Shown: positions 51,431-64,000, numbered from the stretch's first letter. The stretch is DNA of 64,000 nt from GCF_055900595.2 NZ_CM148325.1, one strand, 5' to 3'. A program made the numbers and translations. Notes: generated by a model not told the origin, from the sequence alone.

Positions 51431-52588
51431 TTACTTCGATGCAGTATCTGCGGGGGTATCGGTAGTGGCTTTAACCTGCTCTCCCGGACGCGCTTTTTGC
51501 AGGCCGCTGACAATGACTTGATCGCCAGATTTCAGCCCTTCGCTAATCAACCATTTATCGCCAATCGCCTGGCTGGCAACGACAGGGCGCGCTTCAACCT
51601 GACTTTTATCGTTAACAATCAGCACGGTTGCATCACCACGCGGTGTGCGGCTAACGCCTTGTTGCGGGATAAGAATGGCATCAGGTTGGACGCCTTCATC
51701 AATCCGTGCGCGCACAAACATACCAGGTAAAAGCGTATGTTGCGGGTTAGGGAAGACGGCACGTAGGGTTATGGAGCCGGTGCTTTCATCAACGGTAACA
51801 TCGGAGAATTGCAGCGTACCTTTCAGGGGATAGGTTTGACCGTTCTCCATGACCAACTCTACGTTGCTGGTGGCGTTCTCCTTATGCAAATTTCCTTGCT
51901 CTACGGATTGCTTCAGCCTCATAAAATCGTTGCTGGATTGGGTCACATCAACGTAGATAGGATCGAGCTGCTGGACAGTCGCCAGTTCAGTCGTTTGCCC
52001 ATTAGTGACAAGAGCGCCTTCGGTCACAGTAGATTTGCCGATACGTCCGCTAATTGGCGCAGTCACTTTGGTATAAGCGAGATTGATGCGAGCGCTTTCG
52101 ACCGTGGCTTTTGCGGCAATCACGGCGGCATCGGCCTGGCGAGCATCAGCAATGGCCTGGTCGTACTCCTGCTGACTGATGTATTTCGTACCCACGAGCG
52201 GAACGTAACGTTTTACCGTCAAATGCGCGATGGCGGCGGCGGCTTCACTTTTCGCCAGTTCGCCTTTCGCGCTGTCATAACTTGCCTGATAGGTCGCGGG
52301 ATCGATCTGGTACAGAGACTGGCCTGCTTGCACATCGCTGCCTTCAGTGAAATTGCGACTCAGTACGATCCCGCTAACCTGTGGGCGAACTTCGGCTATA
52401 CGGTAAGCATTGGTGCGGCCTGGTAATTCAGTCTTAACTTCTAACGGGGCCGTTTTCACAATATGAACGGTAACCTGCGGTTCACCGACGTGAGCTTTCT
52501 CTTCTCCCTTATCGTTACAACCGGCGATTAAAGCCGCGGAGATCAGAATAAAGGAGGGCAGGAGGAAAAAACTGGCATGTTTCGTCAT
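51431..52588 (-). CDS. acrE: RND efflux membrane-fusion lipoprotein AcrE (385 aa)
   Basis: [51 protein letters not shown]...; lipobox and AcrA-like domains. Confidence 0.96.
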
Positions 52589-52986
52589 TACTATTCCTCA
52601 AAAAACCAAAAGCGCGTTATTTACCTAAAAAGGCAACGCGTTAACTCGCAGAAAGAAAAATACAGTTCGCTATCCTACAAATTATCATTCGTCGATGTAA
52701 GGAATAGTTATGAATACTGGCGTCTCAAGGCACATAAACACAAAAAAAGATTAATATTCTACTGTTTTATTTTGACGCGGGTTGAAAGAGGTAGAATCAA
52801 ATTTTCGTAAATTGAAATATATATTGATAGAGTGAATGTATTTTAGGTAAATAATAAATGTTATTTATTTGACGATTTATAGCAACTCAATATTAGCCTC
52901 TCGTATAAATATACATTAGGTGATAGATTAACCTTCGCTATTTTCTCATCCTGTGTCGAATATATTTATTTCCTGAATAATTAATC
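52589..52986. promoter_or_regulatory. Divergent acrEF / acrS promoter-operator region (A/T-rich)
   Basis: 398-bp strongly A/T-rich intergenic region between divergent acrE and acrS; regulatory role from established acrEF biology. Confidence 0.5.
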
Positions 52987-53649
52987 ATGGCAAAAAGAAC
53001 CAAAGCTGAAGCCCTGAAGACCCGGCAAGAACTGATTGAAACTGCCATCGCCCAGTTTGCGCAGCATGGCGTAAGCAAGACGACGCTCAACGACATTGCC
53101 GACGCCGCTAACGTTACGCGTGGCGCTATCTACTGGCACTTCGAGAACAAGACCCAACTGTTTAATGAGATGTGGTTGCAACAGCCTTCATTGCGGGAGT
53201 TAATCCAGGATCACTTGACTGCTGGGTTAGAGCATGACCCGTTTCAGCAATTGCGTGAAAAATTGATTGTTGGCTTGCAATATATTGCCAAAATTCCCCG
53301 CCAGCAGGCGTTGCTGAAAATCTTATATCACAAATGTGAATTTAATGATGAGATGCTGGCAGAGGGAGTGATACGCGAAAAGATGGGCTTTAATCCGCAG
53401 ACTCTCCGCGAAGTATTGCAGGCATGTCAGCAACAAGGTTGTATAGCAAATAATCTCGATTTAGATGTTGTGATGATTATTATTGATGGAGCCTTCAGCG
53501 GTATTGTTCAAAACTGGTTAATGAATATGGCGGGTTATGATCTTTATAAACAAGCACCCGCACTGGTCGATAACGTATTAAGAATGTTCATGCCAGATGA
53601 AAACATAACGAAATTAATTCATCAAACGAATGAATTAAGTGTCATATAA
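52987..53649 (+). CDS. acrS: TetR-family repressor AcrS/EnvR (220 aa)
   Basis: MAKRTKAEALKTRQELIETAIAQFAQHGVSKTTLNDIADAANVTRGAIYWHFENKTQLF...; TetR N-terminal HTH. Confidence 0.95.
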   Translation: MAKRTKAEALKTRQELIETAIAQFAQHGVSKTTLNDIADAANVTRGAIYWHFENKTQLFNEMWLQQPSLRELIQDHLTAGLEHDPFQQLREKLIVGLQYIAKIPRQQALLKILYHKCEFNDEMLAEGVIREKMGFNPQTLREVLQACQQQGCIANNLDLDVVMIIIDGAFSGIVQNWLMNMAGYDLYKQAPALVDNVLRMFMPDENITKLIHQTNELSVI

Positions 53650-53651
53650 AT

Positions 53652-53831
53652 TCACATTCTGTCCTGAAAATTCAGTTCGTCACAGTTAACCAGTTTTAGT
53701 GGATTAACTGAGTTCATATTGCGGCATTTGTCTGTTTCTGTTGCCAGCAGTTCAATCCACTGCATCAGTAAAGTATCAAACAGAAAAACGAAGACAGCGA
53801 AAACGACGAGCCACCAATACTTGCGAATCAT
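53652..53831 (-). CDS. yhdU: Small membrane protein YhdU (59 aa)
   Basis: Start taken at internal Met MIRKYWWLVVFAVFVFLFDTLLMQWIELLATE...; ORF track gives 68-aa extended form. Confidence 0.8.
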   Translation of the reverse strand: MIRKYWWLVVFAVFVFLFDTLLMQWIELLATETDKCRNMNSVNPLKLVNCDELNFQDRM

Positions 53832-53914: not shown

Positions 53915-54799
53915 TTACTTTGCAATGAGATCGGGGTCAACTTCGCTTAACCGGCTTCGTTTTGACAGGTTGCCGGTCTTTCTTTTTTTCACTTTCGCCA
54001 GTTCTTCCGCAGAGTAATGCGACGCGACATCCAGCCGTCGAAGCCCCATTTTGATGTACTCGCTGTTGATCTCAATACCAATGAATTTTCGCCCGCTGGC
54101 GGCGGCTACGGCACCGGTAGTAAAGCTACCGGCAAACGGGTCGAGAACGATATCGCCTGGGTTGGAAGAGGCGAGAATAATGCGTTTCAGTAAGGCTTCC
54201 GGTTTTTGCGTCGGGTGATTCTCATATTCATCCATCAAATAACGCACGCGCGGAAAATCCCAGACGTTACCCGGTACTTTTTGATGATTGTAAGGCTGTG
54301 GAGGATTTTTGCGATAATCGATCAACGCGCGCTGCGATCCGGTTTTGGCTTCTACCAGAATAGCATCACCGTTGAACGTGTAGTTCTTTGCGTCTTTCAC
54401 CATCATCAGGATGGGTTCGTACATGGAGCCGTAGTGTTTTTTCGCCTGCACTCCAGAACTGTCATATGACCAGACGATGCGGCTTTTGATGGTAAAAAGC
54501 TTGCGGCACTGGAGATCGATAAAGGGCATGTTTTCCGTGCTGTTCATGATGTACATGCTGCCCTGCTTTTTCAGAACGCGGTGGCACTCTGCAATCACTT
54601 CAAACAGCCAGTCGATAAACAGATCTTCTTTCCAGGCTTCGATCAGACCATCAAAATTTTTACCGATGTTATACGGTGGGTCGGCAAAGATCAGATCTAC
54701 ACTTTCGGCGGGGATCTTTTTAAGTTCGGTTAATGCATCACCCTGGATGATGGTCTTTGCTTCATTACCAAATCGGGTCGGTTCACATCCTGTTCTCAT
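53915..54799 (-). CDS. yhdJ: DNA adenine (N6) methyltransferase YhdJ (294 aa)
   Basis: DPPY motif (LIFADPPYNIG) and SAM-binding region; matches YhdJ; start at third codon of the ORF-track ORF. Confidence 0.93.
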   Translation of the reverse strand: MRTGCEPTRFGNEAKTIIQGDALTELKKIPAESVDLIFADPPYNIGKNFDGLIEAWKEDLFIDWLFEVIAECHRVLKKQGSMYIMNSTENMPFIDLQCRKLFTIKSRIVWSYDSSGVQAKKHYGSMYEPILMMVKDAKNYTFNGDAILVEAKTGSQRALIDYRKNPPQPYNHQKVPGNVWDFPRVRYLMDEYENHPTQKPEALLKRIILASSNPGDIVLDPFAGSFTTGAVAAASGRKFIGIEINSEYIKMGLRRLDVASHYSAEELAKVKKRKTGNLSKRSRLSEVDPDLIAK

Positions 54800-54822
54800 G
54801 GTCACTCCCTTTGTGACACCTA

Positions 54823-54862
54823 TAAAAAAGGCGCTTCCCCATGCCGAGTAGCGCCTTTTTAA
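54823..54862 (-). terminator. Rho-independent terminator downstream of fis
   Basis: Minus-strand hairpin aaggcgct...agcgcctt followed by T run (read on minus strand), between fis stop and yhdJ start. Confidence 0.6.
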
Positions 54863-54884
54863 TCAAGCATTTAGCTAACCTGAA

Positions 54885-55181
54885 TTAGTTCATGCCGTAT
54901 TTTTTCAATTTTTTACGCAGCGTACCACGGTTGATGCCCATCATCAGCGCAGCACGGGTCTGGTTACCACGGGTGTATTGCATCACCATGTCCAACAGGG
55001 GCTGTTCTACTTCAGCCAGTACCAGCTCATAGAGGTCATTCACATCCTGACCGTTCAGTTGAGCAAAATAGTTCTTCAGTGCCTGTTTAACCGAGTCACG
55101 CAGGGGTTTTTGGGTTACCTGATCCTGAGAGTTAACGGTAGAAACGGTCAGTACGTCAGAATTTACGCGTTGTTCGAACAT
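54885..55181 (-). CDS. fis: Nucleoid-associated DNA-binding protein Fis (98 aa)
   Basis: [98 protein letters not shown]. Confidence 0.98.
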
Positions 55182-55206
55182 AGTTCTGTCAGCTCTTTAT
55201 TTCTGT

Positions 55207-56172
55207 TTACGCAAAATTTTCGAAGTATGCCTCCAACGCCTCCAGCTGTTCGCTGGCATCCTCAATGGCGTTGAATGTGCGCCGAAACTGGTCATTTGGA
55301 GCGTGTTCCTGGAGATACCAGGAAACGTGTTTACGTGCAATTCGGTACCCTTTTGCCGGACCATAAAAGTCATGCAGTTCCCGAACGTGCGCGCAAAGCA
55401 AGCGCTTAACCTCTGCCAAAGGCAGCGGGGGCAGCAACTCCCCAGTGTCCAGATAATGCTGGATTTCCCGAAAGATCCAGGGTCTTCCCTGAGCTGCGCG
55501 GCCTATCATCAGGGCATCCGCCCCTGTATAGTCGAGCACAGCTCTGGCTTTAAGCGGGTCAGTAATGTCGCCATTCGCGATAACCGGAATGGAAACTTTC
55601 TGCTTAACTGCCCGAATACTGTCGTACTCAGCTTCTCCATTGAACAAACAGGCGCGTGTTCGGCCATGAATGGTCAGAGCCTGAATGCCACAGTCTTCAG
55701 CCAGTTGGGCAATCTCTTCGCAGTTACGGTGTTCCGGCGCCCAGCCGGTGCGAATCTTCAGGGTAACAGGAACGTCCACTGCATTGACGACCTCGGTAAG
55801 GATCGATTTAACGACATCCGGGTACTGCAAGAGGGCTGAACCTGCGAGCTTGCGATTCACTTTTTTGGCCGGGCAACCCATATTGATATCAATAATCTGG
55901 GCACCGCTTTCCACGTTAATACGTGCTGCATCTGCCATTTCTTTCGGATCGCTACCAGCAATTTGCACGGTGCGAATACCGGGTTCATCAATGTGCACCA
56001 TCCGTAAACGAGATTTGTCGCTTTCCCAAACCTGTGGGTTAGAAGACATCATCTCGGATACTGTCAATCCGGCTCCCATCTCGTAGCACAACGTCCGAAA
56101 AGGTCTGTCTGTAATGCCAGCCATGGGCGCTGCGATCAGGCGATTTCTGAGCTGATATTGTCCGATGCGCAT
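55207..56172 (-). CDS. dusB: tRNA-dihydrouridine synthase B (321 aa)
   Basis: [60 protein letters not shown]...; TIM-barrel Dus family. Confidence 0.96.
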
Positions 56173-56500
56173 GAGTTAAGAAATGACCATACTGTGACTG
56201 CAAGGCGGCGTATATTACGCATTTTTTGCACGAGATGAAAGGCCAAACTTTGACCAATCCTCTGAGATGGATCAAAGAATTGCATTTAAAATGAGCTTGG
56301 CGCGATAATTACTCATAAAAATCATCATATTAGAAAATAGTGACTAAAATTTACACTCCAAGAAATTTGAGTAAGTTCTCAATTTTTCTTTATGAATGAA
56401 AATTTTGGCACGCAAATCTGCGTAAATAATCGGCAAATTAACGTGCCTTTTGTGATATTGCTCGCACTTCGCTCTGCATCACTATACGGTGATGCGAAAG
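56173..56500 (-). promoter_or_regulatory. dusB-fis promoter region (growth-phase regulated, Fis-autoregulated) plus prmA 3' flank
   Basis: 328-bp A/T-rich intergenic region upstream of dusB; role assigned from established fis operon biology. Confidence 0.5.
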
Positions 56501-57382
56501 TTAATTCTTACGACCGGTAATGCGGCACCACTCTTCTTTTTCCACGACCGGGTCCAGAGCGAAGCTGTCGGCATAAGCTTCACAAACGCTCTCTGCCTGG
56601 CTTGCCAGAATACCGGAAAGGCCCAGCAAGCCACCTGAAACCGGCAGGACGCTGATTAACGGTGCCAGTTCACGTAATGGGCCTGCAAGGATGTTAGCGA
56701 CCACCACGTCGGCTTTCATTTCTTCTGGCTGATCTTTAGGTAGGTAGAGTTCCAGACGGTCAGAAACGCCATTACGTTCGGCGTTGTCGCGGCTGGCCTG
56801 AATCGCCTGCGGATCAATATCAATACCAATGGCTTTTGCTGCACCCAGTTTCAGCGCCGCGATAGCCAGAATGCCGGAACCGCAGCCAAAGTCGATGACT
56901 GTTTTACCGGTTAAATCGAGGCTGTCGAGCCATTGCAGGCACAGAGAGGTGGTTGGATGAGTCCCTGTACCAAACGCCAGCCCTGGGTCTAACATCACGT
57001 TAACGGCGTTTTCGTCCGGCACATCACGCCAGCTTGGGCAGATCCACAGTCGTTCACCAAAGCGCATCGGGTGGAAATTATCCATCCATTCGCGCTCCCA
57101 GTCTTTATCTTCCAGTTGTTCGATTTTGTGCGCGAAGCCTGCGCCGAGCAGCGGATGATTCTCCAGAATCGCCACCACGTCGTTCATATCGGTTTCAGCA
57201 TCGAACAGACCAATCACATCGGTGTCGCCCCACAGGCGCGTTTCGCCCGGAAGCGGCTCAAATACAGGCGTATCGTGGGTATCCTGAAAAGTGATAGAAA
57301 CGGCACCCGCTTCCATCAGCGCATCGCTAAGTTCTTCAGCATTCGCGCCGGTAGTGTTCAGTTTCAGTTGGATCCAAGGCAT
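56501..57382 (-). CDS. prmA: Ribosomal protein L11 methyltransferase PrmA (293 aa)
   Basis: [60 protein letters not shown]...; SAM-binding GxGxG ([10 protein letters not shown]). Confidence 0.96.
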
Positions 57383-57393
57383 GGCAAAACTCT

Positions 57394-58845
57394 TTATTTA
57401 TCAGTAGTCAAAACGGTAGCTTGCGGGACGGATGTACCGAAACGGTTTCCGACCAGGAAAGCCAGCAAACTTAGTAGTAACGAGGGCACGATAGGGTGGA
57501 AGCCCAGGTACTGAATATTCAGCGTCGCGAGTACGGCATACAGTACGCCGCCAACGATCATCGCACTTAGCGCGCCTTTGGCGTTGGCGCGTTCCCAGTA
57601 AAGACCCAGCACCAGCGGCCACAGGAAAACGGCTTCCAGCCCACCGAAGGCCAGCAAATTCAGCCAGATGATCATTTCTGGTGGCTTCCAGGCGGCAAGC
57701 AGCAGCAACGCACCGAGAACCAACGTGATCACCGCCGACATCCGCTTCAGACGCGTCTCGTTTTGCATTTGATCCGGACGGATATTCAGATAGAGATCTT
57801 TAATGATCGTAGCGGAACTTTGCAGCAACTGGGCATTGATCGTCGACATGATCGCAGCCATAGGTGCAGCCAGGAAGATCCCGGCAGCAAACGGTGGCAG
57901 CACTTTTACCATCAACGTCGGGATCACCAGGTCCGGTACGGTGAGATCGGGGATCACCGCCCGACCTAACGCTCCGGCCAGGTGCATACCGAACATCAGG
58001 ATTGCGACCACAATCGTACCGATGATGATCCCCCGATGTACGGCTTTGCTGTCTTTATAAGAGATACAGCGCACCGCAGTATGCGGCAGGCCAATCACGC
58101 CAAAACACACCAGCACCCAGAACGACGTCATAAACGCAGGTGACAGAATATCGTCAGCGCCTTGTGGCGTAACCAGTTGCGGATCGATGGTTTGCAGCGT
58201 CTCTACTGCATTGCTTAAGCCGCCAGCAGCATGGACTACGCCAATAAGCAGCACAATGGTGCCAATCAGCATCACCAACCCTTGCATGGTGTCGTTCAGC
58301 ACGCTGGCGCGAAAGCCGCCAAAGGCGGTGTAGAGCGCAATGCTGATGCCAAAAATCAGCAAACCTGTTTCATAAGGGATACCCGCCGCGGTTTCCAGCA
58401 GGCGCGCACCGCCGATAAACTGCACGGTCATCGCACCAACGAACGCAACCAGCAAACTCAAACTCGCCAGCCACACCAGCAGGCGACTCTGGTAGCGGGC
58501 AAACAGCATATCGTTCAGCGTCACCGCATTGTAGCGGCGCGCGAGAATCGCGAACTTCTTGCCGAGAATACCGAGCGAAAGCCAGACCGCAGGTAGCTGA
58601 ATCATTGCCAGCAATACCCAACCCAGGCCGTATTTATAAGCAGCTCCTGGCCCGCCGATAAACGAACTGGCACTGATATAGGTCGCGGTGAGCGTCATCG
58701 CCAGCACAATACCGCCCATAGAGCGGCTACCGAGGAAATACTCATTAAGGAAGGTGCCGGTGCTCCGTTTACGCATCGCATAAACAGAGATACCGAACAC
58801 CACCACCAGATAGGCGACCAGCGGTAGAATCACTTCAAGCTGCAT
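57394..58845 (-). CDS. panF: Sodium/pantothenate symporter PanF (483 aa)
   Basis: Start at third codon of ORF ([23 protein letters not shown]...); SSF-family 13-TM transporter. Confidence 0.95.
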
Positions 58846-59077
58846 CGTCATCCTCCAGCGGGATATCGCGATAGATAAATTTCACCATCGCCCAGCACAG
58901 TCCAATAAACAGCAGCGGCGTCAGGATGCAAGCCATCTCAAACCAGCGTGGAAAGCCGGTAAAACCGGGGGTAACGCCAGGTAAGTAAGCGGCTACTAAC
59001 CATACCGCCAGATAAAAAAGGGTCAGCCCCAGCGCCCAGCGCGCCTCTTTATGGGCCTGAACAAAACGAGTGTCCAC
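58835..59077 (-). CDS. yhdT: Small membrane protein YhdT (80 aa, DUF997)
   Basis: Likely GTG start giving (M)DTRFVQAHKEARWALGLTLFYLAVWLVAAYLPG...; 3' end overlaps panF start. Confidence 0.85.
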   Translation of the reverse strand: MDTRFVQAHKEARWALGLTLFYLAVWLVAAYLPGVTPGFTGFPRWFEMACILTPLLFIGLCWAMVKFIYRDIPLEDDDAA

Positions 59078-59169
59078 GGAAGGGGTCCTCCTCATGGGGG
59101 GATACGAGAAACGGGCAATTCTACGGCAACTCTTCAGGCAGGGAAAATAATCTGACAGAAAATTGCCGT

Positions 59170-60105
59170 TCAGTGCTGCCGCAAAAAGTCTTCAATGTCA
59201 GTCAGTGAGGATACCCCTTCCATCGGACCTTGTCGCATTACGGCGAGCGCGCCGCTGGCATTTGCATATTGCAGCGCCTTGTGTGCCGGGATACCGGATA
59301 AGAAAAGAGTGACAAACGTTGCGCCAAAGCAGTCGCCTGCACCCGTTGGATCGATTATTTCGATATCGTGGCCTGCAACATGCTGGGCGTGTAATGTTCC
59401 GTTTTTAAGCTTGTAATAGCTGGCCCCACGCTGGGCGCGTTTTATCGCCACATGTTTTACGCCGCCGTGGAGAAGATCGCTAACAATCTGTTCTTCTGAC
59501 AGATTTTTGTGACGCGCGAAGAAAGGGAGTTCGCTTTCGCTGGGGATAAAAATATCCGTATATTCAATCAAATAATCGAGAGCCTGCGCCATTTCAGGAA
59601 TACTCAGCATCTCTTTGCGAATATTGGGATCGAAAGAAACGGTGCCGCCAGCCGATTTGATCGTCGTTATTGCTTTACGCATGACATCGATCATGCGAAA
59701 TGAGAACAATGATGAGCCCACAATATGCAGATGGTTACACTGTTTTAGCAGATCCTTATCAATGTGCTCGGCAGTAAACAAACCGCAGGCGCTGTTAGGG
59801 ATATTAAAGACGAAATCCCGCTGCTGGGGATTTTGATAACTCACGAATGCCGTACCTGTTACGGCATTGTTCATAACATGGATCCCATCGGTAATGACAC
59901 CTTCATGACGGAGGCGCTCTATAATGAGTCGGCCAAAATCATCATTACCAACACATCCGAAGAAGATGGCCCGATGGGACAGTTTTGCCACCTGAGCAGC
60001 AAAAATTGCTGGTGCACCGCTGGGAAATGGCCCGATAAACTCCCCAGGCTGAGTGAATTTTTGATGTGGGTTGCGGGACAAAAACTCGGCCAGCAATTCG
60101 CCCAT
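59170..60105 (-). CDS. pfkB-family carbohydrate kinase (ribokinase-like fold); substrate unassigned
   Basis: pfkB signature DPTGAGDCFGATF near C-terminus and N-terminal GG-type sugar-binding region; start chosen at internal Met (MGELLAEF...) because the longest ORF (to 60180) would overlap the upstream regulator by 44 bp. Confidence 0.8.
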   Translation of the reverse strand: MGELLAEFLSRNPHQKFTQPGEFIGPFPSGAPAIFAAQVAKLSHRAIFFGCVGNDDFGRLIIERLRHEGVITDGIHVMNNAVTGTAFVSYQNPQQRDFVFNIPNSACGLFTAEHIDKDLLKQCNHLHIVGSSLFSFRMIDVMRKAITTIKSAGGTVSFDPNIRKEMLSIPEMAQALDYLIEYTDIFIPSESELPFFARHKNLSEEQIVSDLLHGGVKHVAIKRAQRGASYYKLKNGTLHAQHVAGHDIEIIDPTGAGDCFGATFVTLFLSGIPAHKALQYANASGALAVMRQGPMEGVSSLTDIEDFLRQH

Positions 60106-60136
60106 AGCGCAGATAGTTATTGTCACAAAACCCCTC

Positions 60137-60967
60137 TCATTCCTGAAGCCTTTCGCGATTGGACCAGGTAAAGCACTCATTACTGGTATAAAGGATAACG
60201 AAATCAGCCGACTGCAATTGTTGCTGATATTGTTCGTTAATGCTGCGGCTGACGATCACATTTTCTGCCTGATGCAAATGTCCAATGGCAGCCGTTGATG
60301 GCGCAGGATCGGCGGCAACGATAACTGTCTTATTCTGGGCATGATCGAAACAGAGCTGCCAGGCAGCGGCAAGTCTGGGAACGTTGATATTTAAAGTACC
60401 ATCAGCATCCAGATGGCTGATTTCCAGAATGCTGTGTGTAATGGTGAAATGCTGAAGTGCCTGTTCGAGCGGTTTTCCGGCCAGTGCGGTGTCGGGGCGC
60501 AGCATTTCACTGCCAGCCAGTATTATTTCGCCATCAATAAACTGATTTGCCAGCAGCGCATGTTCGGGATCGTTGGTGATCAGACGCAGTTTTTTCACTT
60601 CGCTGAGCAATGGAATGATCTTACGGCAGATTGTCCCATGTCCAAGAAATAGCGTGTCACGATCGCGAATTAACCGTGCGCAATGTCGTGCTATTTCCAT
60701 TTGTTGTGCCAGAGACAATGGCGCGATCGGTTGTATCGCTTCTGGTTCAGAGGAGAGGGGGGTCGCAATAGCACCGCCAAATGATCGCTTTAAATATCCC
60801 TGTTGCTCCAGATAACTGAGATCGCCGCGGATCGTCACGCCAGAGACACCAAGTTGCGCAGATAAGTCATCAACTTTGATTTCACCCTGGGCGGCAACAA
60901 TTTCTGCAATTTTTAATCTGCGTTTCAGTAGGTTAGACGATTTTCTCGGCACGTTAACACTCTTCAT
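60137..60967 (-). CDS. DeoR-family transcriptional regulator (276 aa)
   Basis: N-terminal HTH region (RRLKIAEIVAAQGEIKVDDLSAQLGVSGVTIRGDLSYLEQQGYLKRSFGGA) and C-terminal DeoR sugar-phosphate-binding domain; directly upstream of and co-oriented with the kinase. Confidence 0.85.
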   Translation of the reverse strand: MKSVNVPRKSSNLLKRRLKIAEIVAAQGEIKVDDLSAQLGVSGVTIRGDLSYLEQQGYLKRSFGGAIATPLSSEPEAIQPIAPLSLAQQMEIARHCARLIRDRDTLFLGHGTICRKIIPLLSEVKKLRLITNDPEHALLANQFIDGEIILAGSEMLRPDTALAGKPLEQALQHFTITHSILEISHLDADGTLNINVPRLAAAWQLCFDHAQNKTVIVAADPAPSTAAIGHLHQAENVIVSRSINEQYQQQLQSADFVILYTSNECFTWSNRERLQE

Positions 60968-61136
60968 TGGCCTTTAATGCGTAACACTATAGCCCCTTGT
61001 ATTTTTCTTTGAAAGTTATCCTTCAATAATATCGACAATTCGAAAAGGAAATCATGGGCCAGAAATCGCAACGAAAATAGCTTAATGCATTGAAAAATAG
61101 ATGAATTAATTCATATTTATGCAGAGGTGTTATTGG

Positions 61137-61262
61137 TTTCACTTGCAAAGTGAAAAACAAATTAAGTTATTTTTTGTAAGTTATTTTGATGATATTCGAC
61201 ATGTATCACGCTTTTTACCGCTTTTGCTGTGCTAGTTTGCTTTCAAAATGAAAGTGAAGATT
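61137..61262. promoter_or_regulatory. Candidate operator sites: perfect palindrome TTTCACTTgcaAAGTGAAA (61137..61155), palindrome CTTTCAaaaTGAAAG (61240..61254) and repeated AAAGTGAA(A/G) (61147..61155, 61251..61259)
   Basis: Inverted/direct repeats in the A/T-rich divergent region between the DeoR regulator and the aldolase gene, 50-170 bp upstream of the aldolase start. Confidence 0.45.
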
Positions 61263-61281
61263 CTCTTTCTTCATTTTGTAA

Positions 61282-62163
<882 letters not shown>

Positions 62164-62198
62164 GACGTTGTACCCTACAAAAACAATGAGGATTGTTT

Positions 62199-63089
62199 AT
62201 GAAAAATATTAAATTACTTGGTTCCGCTATGATGGTGAGCCTGGCATTGTTCTCGCAAAGTTCATTGGCAAAAGAGTATAAAATTGGAGCTTCATTATTA
62301 ACACAGCAACACCCTTTTTATATCGACCTCGCAAATGCAATGAAAGAAGAGGCGAAAAAAGACAATGTCAATTTAAGTGTCTCTATTGCCAATCAGGATT
62401 TAAACAAACAGCTTTCTGATGTTGAGGATTTTATTACTAAAAAGGTAGATGCCATTATTATCTCTCCGGTCGATTCGAAAGGTGTCCAGGCAGCGATAAT
62501 TAAAGCCGATAAGGCTGGTATTCCCGTTATCACCGTTGACGTTGCCGCGGAAGGCGTTCCGGTCGTATCGCATGTTGCGACCGATAATTACGCGGGTGGC
62601 GTTGAAGCTGGTAAGTTAATGGGCAAACTTTTGAATGGTAAAGGTACTGTAGCCATTATTTCTTATCCTGCACTACAATCGGTGGTTGCACGCGTTGATG
62701 GCTTTAAGAAAGGATTAAGCGATACGCCGGATATTAAAATTGTTGCTGAACAGCCGGGTATAACGCGGGCTGAAGCGTTAACGACTGCGCAAAACATTAT
62801 GCAGGCCAACGCCAACCTGAATGGTCTGTTTGGCTTTGGTGATGATGCGGCGCTGGCGGCGGTTATAGCGGCGAAATCTGCGCATAACGACAACATCAAA
62901 ATCATTGGTTTTGATGGTATGAAAGAAGCGCGAGATGCCGTTGATAGTGAAAAAACGTTTGCGGCCGTGATTCGGCAATATCCCGATCAAATGGGTGCTA
63001 AAGCCATTGATGCCGCTGTTGATCACCTCAATGGTAAACCGGTAGAGAAAATGATCCCGGTACAACCCGGCGTTTATACAGGTAAATAA
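62199..63089 (+). CDS. Periplasmic sugar-binding protein of an ABC transporter (RbsB-like, Peripla_BP family)
   Basis: Signal peptide MKNIKLLGSAMMVSLALFSQSSLA followed by type-I periplasmic binding fold; start taken at third codon of the ORF-track ORF. Confidence 0.85.
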   Translation: MKNIKLLGSAMMVSLALFSQSSLAKEYKIGASLLTQQHPFYIDLANAMKEEAKKDNVNLSVSIANQDLNKQLSDVEDFITKKVDAIIISPVDSKGVQAAIIKADKAGIPVITVDVAAEGVPVVSHVATDNYAGGVEAGKLMGKLLNGKGTVAIISYPALQSVVARVDGFKKGLSDTPDIKIVAEQPGITRAEALTTAQNIMQANANLNGLFGFGDDAALAAVIAAKSAHNDNIKIIGFDGMKEARDAVDSEKTFAAVIRQYPDQMGAKAIDAAVDHLNGKPVEKMIPVQPGVYTGK

Positions 63090-63149
63090 TAAACATCTTC
63101 ATTTCACAACAAAACGTTATCGACGTTTTGTTGTGACACCGAGGTCATT

Positions 63150-64000
63150 ATGACGGATGTTATTCTTGATGTTTCGCATATTGCGAAGACATTTGGTCAT
63201 GTTCAGGCATTAAAAGATATTACACTCTCTTTACGTAAAGGGCGGGTACATACTTTATTAGGTGAGAATGGTGCCGGTAAATCGACATTAATGAAAATAT
63301 TGGCCGGTGTTTATCCGCCAACCCAGGGAACAATAAAACTACGTGGTGAAACTATCACAATTAATAATCCGCAGCATTCACGTCAGTTAGGGATTGCTAT
63401 TATTTTTCAGGAACTGAGCCTGAGTAATAATATGACAGTGGCGGAAAATATTTATGCCAATAATGAACCGCGACGTTTTGGCATTATTAACGATAAAAAA
63501 ATGCTCGCAGATTGCCAGAATCTCCTCGCGGAACTGGGCATCCCACTGGATCCGCTGGAAATGGTCGGCAATATGTCGATGGCACATAGGCAACTGGTAG
63601 AAATTGCCAAAGCCTTAAGCTATGCAGCAGATGTCGTGATTATGGATGAACCGACATCTTCGCTAAGTGATAATGAAGCAGAGATTCTGTTTAACATTAT
63701 TGAGAAATTAAAGCAGCGAGGTTGTGCGGTTATTTATATCTCTCATCGCATGGATGAAATTATGCGGATTTCAGATGATATTTCGGTGATCCGCGACGGT
63801 GAGTATATCGCTACGCATGAAAAGAAAAACAGTGATATCCAGCATTTGATTGCCCAAATGGTTGGTCGGGAAATGAAAAATATTTGGCCAGCACGTCTTG
63901 GGGAAAAGCCGGATGAAAATGTTCCTGCAAAACTGGAAGTAAAAAACCTTTCCCATCCTTCGCTTTTTAAAGAGGTCAGTTTCGCTGTGCGTCCGGGGGA
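63150..64000 (+). CDS. Sugar ABC transporter ATP-binding protein, tandem-NBD RbsA/MglA type; 3' end beyond window
   Basis: MTDVILDVSHIAKTFGHVQALKDITLSLRKGRVHTLLGENGAGKSTLMKILAGV... Walker A, Walker B (VIMDEPTSSL), second NBD beginning near the window end. Confidence 0.88.
   Translation, partial: MTDVILDVSHIAKTFGHVQALKDITLSLRKGRVHTLLGENGAGKSTLMKILAGVYPPTQGTIKLRGETITINNPQHSRQLGIAIIFQELSLSNNMTVAENIYANNEPRRFGIINDKKMLADCQNLLAELGIPLDPLEMVGNMSMAHRQLVEIAKALSYAADVVIMDEPTSSLSDNEAEILFNIIEKLKQRGCAVIYISHRMDEIMRISDDISVIRDGEYIATHEKKNSDIQHLIAQMVGREMKNIWPARLGEKPDENVPAKLEVKNLSHPSLFKEVSFAVRPG

Follow-up and report, generated by a model that had tools for sequence, protein, structure and literature searches.

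Catabolism of D-tagatose in Escherichia coli Nissle 1917 is encoded by the tag locus, an 8.5-kb region of eight genes that was described in 2022, sits between accC and yhdT, is missing from K-12 and is organized as two divergent units 341 bp apart (PMC9720028). Its genes received the names tagK, tagR and tagYABCDE in 2025 (PMC12226905). The same island has surfaced in genome comparisons: an extra tagatose-bisphosphate aldolase gene within it was reported in 2018 to be enriched in phylogroup B2 (PMC5996543), and a 2026 comparison of the avian pathogenic E. coli (APEC) strain BEN2908 with other extraintestinal pathogenic E. coli (ExPEC) lists it as “GR 23 accC..yhdT” (PMC12928451). We analyzed a 64,000-nucleotide stretch of NZ_CM148325.1 (GCF_055900595.2), referred to below as the window, and find that its segment 59170-64000 is almost certainly the left 4.8 kb of this E. 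coli locus, an accessory island for growth on D-tagatose. No evidence contradicts the identification. The substrate, pathway, regulation and phylogroup distribution of the tag locus are all in print, and the window adds no new system. Our additions are small: a minority, diverged and intact allele; island boundaries at the yhdT start and accC stop codons; and the assignment, by sequence match, of Protein Data Bank (PDB) entries 3iq0 and 3k9e to the kinase TagD.

Growth on D-tagatose and its induction have been demonstrated for the Nissle allele only (PMC9720028). Nissle derivatives lacking the six genes tagYABCDE, or tagD alone, do not grow on D-tagatose. Supplying the six genes on a plasmid restores growth to the Nissle deletion and confers it on K-12, BL21(DE3) and W; in K-12 with this plasmid a pfkA mutant fails to grow on tagatose whereas a pfkB mutant grows (PMC9720028). 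Tagatose induces tagYAB more than 1000-fold and tagRK only about two-fold (PMC9720028). Two transcription starts have been mapped by differential RNA sequencing (dRNA-seq), and the system is repressed by glucose (PMC12226905).

The window follows the core gene order yhdJ-fis-dusB-prmA-panF-yhdT on the minus strand (open reading frame [ORF] list for 54000-64000), as a preliminary interpretation made from the sequence alone (the sequence-only reading) had described it from fis to yhdT. That reading also named accC, correctly, as the next gene after yhdT in K-12, where 108 bp separate the two. Beyond yhdT it placed genes for a pfkB-family kinase and a regulator of DeoR type on the minus strand, then an aldolase, a sugar-binding protein and an ABC ATPase on the plus strand; ORFs are present at these positions, and NCBIfam and Pfam searches agree on the families. 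The genes are as follows.

59170..60105, minus strand: tagK, pfkB-family sugar kinase, 311 amino acids, second gene of the tagR-tagK “reg” operon; the longest ORF extends to 60180.
60137..60967, minus strand: tagR, DeoR/GlpR-family repressor of the tag operon, 276 amino acids; AgaR is the best NCBIfam match, at 105.6 bits, below its cut-off.
61309..62163, plus strand: tagY, class II D-tagatose-1,6-bisphosphate aldolase by family, 284 amino acids, first gene of tagYABCDE.
62199..63089, plus strand: tagA, RbsB-like periplasmic binding protein of CUT2 type, 296 amino acids, from the putative D-tagatose ABC importer; RbsB is the best NCBIfam match, at 161.9 bits, below its cut-off.
63150..64000, plus strand: tagB, ABC ATPase with tandem nucleotide-binding domains; the first 851 of 1500 nucleotides, the gene being cut by the window end.

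The whole island was viewed in NZ_CP098223.1 (strain Z0117EC0005), the best match, with 6 differences from the window in 16.9 kb. Here the full gene set reads tagK, tagR, tagY, tagA, tagB, tagC, tagD, tagE, followed by accC and accB. The genes past the window end, which the sequence-only reading left unnamed as remaining transporter genes, turn out to be a single permease (tagC), a second pfkB kinase (tagD) and a protein labeled “aldose-1-epimerase-family” that belongs to Pfam DUF4432 (tagE).

The closest described system, the Nissle 1917 tag locus (ECOLIN_RS18670-18705 / HW372_RS02435-02470; PMC9720028, PMC12226905), shares with the window its site, gene order, orientation, gene lengths and control region. 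Aligned to Nissle 1917, the window and the near-identical strain are colinear, with equal gene lengths, no insertions or deletions (indels) and no stop codons. Identity is 93.6-98.3% per segment at the nucleotide level and 96.8-99.3% at the protein level across all eight genes; within the window it is 98.1% for TagK (against HW372_RS02435), 99.3% for TagR, 97.2% for TagY and 99.0% for TagA. The difference lies in the allele, which is ∼3% apart in nucleotide sequence overall and 5-6.5% apart in tagY, tagA and the control region. The sequence-only reading had taken the locus to be uncharacterized and named a near-identical match to a characterized operon with known substrate as the finding that would overturn this view. 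With proteins this close to those of Nissle, and D-tagatose established there as the substrate by deletion, complementation and transfer (PMC9720028), such a match is what we find.

TagY passes the TIGR01858 equivalog model (472.7 bits, cut-off 443.55) and the GatY subfamily model NF009374 (521.2 versus 383) and fails the KbaY equivalog NF009375 (376.4 versus 542). It aligns end to end with AgaY (PDB 1gvf, E 4e-104), and Nissle TagY is reported to be 63.7% identical to GatY and 56.3% to KbaY (PMC9720028). The tag locus resembles the K-12 gat and aga/kba systems (GatYZ, KbaYZ) in its final step, a class II tagatose-1,6-bisphosphate aldolase, and in its regulator, a repressor of the DeoR family whose control region is laid out like that of AgaR (PMC12226905). 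In contrast to these systems, which use a phosphotransferase system (PTS), the tag locus uses an ABC transporter, and the sugar would enter unphosphorylated and be met by a dedicated kinase, TagD; the locus also lacks a GatZ/KbaZ-like subunit and draws its second phosphate from glycolytic PfkA. The partner subunit, which the sequence-only reading had left as an unknown, has no gene in the island according to the annotation of the near-identical strain; TagY may act by itself or with a borrowed GatZ or KbaZ. We rejected a duplicate of gat or aga/kba, as the island encodes neither a PTS nor GatZ/KbaZ, and TagY falls under the KbaY equivalog cut-off. The earlier separation of the locus from gat, aga/kba, ydj, als, lsr, frl and yih is borne out, the tag locus being the system instead.

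TagA matches ribose- and allose-binding proteins in the PDB (E 1e-48 to 1e-21), and the best NCBIfam matches of TagB are AraG, XylG and RbsA. We rejected assignment as a ribose, allose, arabinose or xylose transporter: both proteins score far below the curated cut-offs, and the likeness is one of family.

The two kinases of the island are paralogs, TagK and TagD being ∼48% identical. TagK matches Pfam PF00294 at E 1e-44, and its top NCBIfam match is the “tagatose kinase” model NF049991 at 346.6 bits, under the cut-off of 420; NF049991 is likewise the best match of TagD, at 412.6 bits. The kinase in the window had been read as the pathway kinase. That role belongs to tagD, past the window end, as the tagD deletion established (PMC9720028). 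TagD (L001 18566-19528) also matches PDB entries 3iq0 and 3k9e, both titled “putative ribokinase II”, at 723 bits, with about 4 of 320 residues different. TagK matches the same entries at the level of a paralog (339 bits). By this sequence comparison 3iq0 and 3k9e are the tagatose kinase TagD of the tag island, and a structure of the pathway kinase already exists under a generic name.

The deletions of the cluster and of tagD, the plasmid transfer and the need for pfkA point to a route of ABC import followed by TagD, PfkA and TagY. TagABC (TagA binding protein, TagB ATPase, TagC permease) would take up free D-tagatose, as homology and the whole-cluster phenotype suggest. TagD would convert it to tagatose-6-phosphate, on the basis of the growth defect of the single tagD deletion, and host PfkA would then form tagatose-1,6-bisphosphate, on the basis of the K-12 pfkA mutant that carries the cluster and does not grow on tagatose. 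TagY, by its family membership, would cleave this into dihydroxyacetone phosphate plus glyceraldehyde-3-phosphate. The ketose-phosphate logic with ABC rather than PTS uptake that had been proposed from the sequence holds, but the simple order of phosphorylation and then cleavage does not, a second phosphorylation by host PfkA coming between the two (PMC9720028).

Expression is organized around the divergent control region, in which all of the published control elements (Preg, Ptag, the CRP site, tagO1 and tagO2) are present; the Ptag -35 box and tagO1 each differ by one base.

60968..61308, no strand: tagR-tagY divergent control region, 341 bp, AT-rich; 22 substitutions and 0 indels relative to Nissle 1917, and the published length.
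60986..61013, minus strand: Preg promoter, -35 TTCAAA, 16-bp spacer, -10 TATAGT; identical to Nissle.
61195..61210, plus strand: TTCGA-N6-TCACG, a predicted CRP site just upstream of the Ptag -35 box; both half-sites exact.
61212..61238, plus strand: Ptag promoter, -35 TTTTTA at 61212-61217 (TTTTTG in Nissle), 15-bp spacer, -10 TAGTTT at 61233-61238 (identical).
61240..61258, plus strand: tagO1, predicted TagR operator overlapping the tag transcription start; one mismatch to the published 19-mer.
61264..61282, minus strand: tagO2, the other predicted TagR operator, in inverted orientation to tagO1; identical to the published 19-mer.

Preg was recovered independently by a blind consensus scan, and scans with the tagO1 and tagO2 19-mers gave one match each, with zero expected by chance. 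The published transcription starts lie 11 nucleotides upstream of the tagR ATG (∼60978 in the window) and, by dRNA-seq, 64 nucleotides upstream of tagY (∼61245 in the window); the CRP site is itself a published prediction, and glucose repression has been put to use as auto-induction (PMC12226905). TagR aligns over its full length to the AgaR, GlpR, SrlR and DeoR models and falls below the equivalog cut-off of each, so we regard it as a member of the DeoR/GlpR family, with its N-terminal helix-turn-helix and C-terminal sugar-phosphate-binding domain, that is an ortholog of none of the four. Reporter plasmids have established its role as a tagatose-responsive repressor (PMC12226905). TagR would be made from Preg together with TagK at a low, near-constant level and would repress the divergent Ptag through predicted binding to the inverted tagO1 and tagO2 sites. 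Tagatose would lift this repression to give the induction of tagYAB, and the CRP site would provide repression by glucose.

Several points weigh against this account of pathway and control as applied to the window. Transport by TagABC is assigned from homology and phenotype, TagY activity from its family, and the binding of TagR to its operators is a prediction. The need for PfkA was seen only in K-12 with a six-gene construct that lacks tagRK (PMC9720028). TagK and TagD both score under the NCBIfam tagatose-kinase cut-off, and the window allele departs from that of Nissle by 8 amino acid changes in TagY and by the two bases in the Ptag -35 box and tagO1.

Free D-tagatose is scarce in nature, a point in favor of a different account in which the true substrate in the gut is a related rare ketose or a polyol, such as galactitol or D-altritol oxidized to tagatose, with growth on tagatose a side activity and with TagK and TagE acting on the true substrate or its anomer. 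Tests of growth on tagatose give no role to two of the eight genes, tagK and tagE, and Nissle grows slowly on tagatose, its cultures having been tracked for 120 h (PMC9720028). The account also draws on rhizobial relatives, which we compared, like the Klebsiella and Salmonella pathway below, through their descriptions in the literature: ABC-plus-kinase modules of Agrobacterium and Sinorhizobium homologous to tag serve altritol and galactitol via tagatose (as cited in PMC9720028). However, D-tagatose is itself the inducer of tagYAB, by more than 1000-fold, and six genes suffice for tagatose growth in four laboratory strains (PMC9720028); moreover, the annotated island holds no dehydrogenase or isomerase that could feed in another substrate. 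We consider a related substrate unlikely and favor D-tagatose.

The rhizobial modules of S. meliloti and A. tumefaciens C58 share a four-gene core with tag, namely the three importer parts (binding protein, ATPase and permease) plus a pfkB-type tagatose kinase, often with a DeoR regulator (as cited in PMC9720028). They differ in the fate of tagatose-6-phosphate, which is epimerized there to fructose-6-phosphate, whereas E. coli would phosphorylate it again for cleavage by TagY. In S. meliloti a tagatose-6-phosphate 4-epimerase gene occupies the position of tagE, and the DUF4432 protein TagE is dissimilar to it (PMC9720028). The tagatose pathway of Klebsiella oxytoca and Salmonella enterica has the same substrate and reaches the same end products via tagatose-1,6-bisphosphate (as cited in PMC9720028), but does so with PTS uptake and with other genes at another locus.

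The genes for TagK and the repressor share a transcript, made at a low, near-constitutive level. DeoR-family repressors (DeoR, GlpR, UlaR, FucR, LacR) mostly sense phosphorylated sugars. From these two observations, TagK could convert the first incoming tagatose to tagatose-6-phosphate as the true inducer, rather than standing by as a spare tagatose kinase. If true, the published model of free tagatose binding to TagR would need correction. TagK could instead act in native strains as a tagatose-6-phosphate 1-kinase, the PfkA requirement having come from a construct lacking tagRK. We hold the idea that TagK has one or other of these roles as a tentative proposal, with the odds against it.

In a megablast search of 5,426 complete E. 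coli genomes with window positions 59096-64000, 1,422 genomes, about a quarter, carried the tag stretch, almost always as a single chromosomal copy. This agrees with the earlier suggestion of an accessory, strain-variable locus between yhdT and accC, and is consistent with the published presence of tag in 93% of B2 and 73% of F strains (PMC9720028). The window allele, at 99% identity or more, accounts for 8 of these genomes, and 1,413 match at 95-99%. Of the 1,423 places matched, two lie on plasmids, and a single record reaches just 80-90% identity; a mobilized copy and a distant tag allele could account for these. The locus matters as a trait that marks phylogroup B2, a group with ExPEC, adherent-invasive E. 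coli (AIEC) and Nissle 1917 among its members, for its bearing on how safe D-tagatose is as a food sweetener, and as a tagatose-inducible expression switch already in use.

Divergence from Nissle is 2.9% in the island (9.7% at fourfold-degenerate sites) and 2.3% in the flanking core (7.6%). A recent independent acquisition in the window lineage is not favored, as island and core are alike in their fourfold divergence; the similarity accords with long residence, or with homologous recombination in which island and flanks were exchanged together, as it does with the earlier guess of an old strain-variable locus. The divergence is unevenly spread. From the control region through tagY and tagA (60968-63089) it reaches 5.3-6.5% of nucleotides and ∼20% of fourfold sites, compared with 2.6-10% of fourfold sites in the other tag genes. 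Because divergence is high yet amino acid changes are few, this segment suggests a recombinant patch, probably from a more distant allele, under purifying selection. Around the insertion site, panF (57394-58845), prmA (56501-57382) and accC (L001 20663-22012) differ by 2.7-4.1% of nucleotides from K-12 and Nissle, and fis, dusB and accB by only 0.2-1.1%, an unevenness that suggests recombination tracts including the island flanks.

The same diverged segment could instead mark an allele that is decaying or already non-functional, in a lineage without selection for it. Consistent with decay, tagY, tagA and the control region are the segments most diverged from Nissle, the Ptag -35 box and tagO1 carry one change each, and tagE has 11 amino acid changes for 22 nucleotide changes; a few strains carry pseudogenized copies of tagE or tagK, with a tagE pseudogene in at least one (PMC9720028). 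However, the eight genes are full length and free of stops and indels, the changes in tagY and tagA are mainly synonymous (8 and 3 amino acid changes against the ∼20% fourfold divergence), which argues for purifying selection, and the allele has kept its two operators, the CRP half-sites and the -10 box of each promoter. We regard decay as highly improbable. The window copy is better read as an intact, minority, diverged allele for which, from its sequence, the function of the Nissle locus, including growth on D-tagatose, is expected.

For tagE itself (L001 19525-20571), the 22 base changes include differences at only 4 of 156 fourfold sites; so high a share of amino acid changes with so few fourfold differences suggests relaxed constraint. 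Its nearest solved relative is 3ty1, a “hypothetical aldose 1-epimerase”.

At the insertion site, ∼8.6 kb stands in place of the 108-bp K-12 spacer between yhdT and accC. When the empty site of K-12 is aligned with the occupied site, no part of this spacer is retained: similarity to K-12 breaks off at the start codon of yhdT on the left and at the stop codon of accC on the right. The left side comprises two features.

58835..59077, minus strand: yhdT, the final core gene ahead of the island; it matches NCBIfam NF007918 at 164 bits (cut-off 107), in agreement with the RefSeq annotation of the near-identical strain.
59078..59169, no strand: yhdT-tagK spacer of 92 bp, forming the left junction; without similarity to the 108-bp spacer of K-12.

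We rejected a mobile integrative element. In keeping with what the sequence-only reading had stated for the junction, searches for transfer RNA (tRNA) genes, repeats and annotated mobility genes were all empty: there is no tRNA gene at the island to serve as a target, the annotation of the near-identical strain lists no integrase, transposase or insertion sequence, and the island lacks flanking repeats, direct or inverted, the sole long inverted pair reflecting the paralogy of tagK and tagD. The island is richer in A/T than its surroundings, as had also been noted, with 46.0% G+C (45.1% in the window part) against 52-53% in the flanking core and 37-39% in the divergent control region. At third codon positions, G+C is 40-50% from tagK to tagD, 53.6% in tagE and 53-65% in the core.

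The yhdT start codon is GTG in the window and other island-bearing strains and ATG in K-12. The island edge falls at the first base of this codon, and an in-frame ATG lies six codons upstream, in island-side DNA (window 59075-59095). The native region upstream of yhdT-panF-prmA has been wholly exchanged for the 92-bp spacer, in which a consensus scan found no promoter-like or terminator-like site. As tagR-tagK lies on the same strand as yhdT-panF-prmA, transcription from Preg may extend into these genes in island-bearing strains.

Elsewhere in the window, an AT-rich dip at 52500-53750 (33-39% G+C) is ordinary core without an insertion, made up, by the annotation of the near-identical strain, of the acrE-acrS (envR) spacer together with acrS and yhdU.

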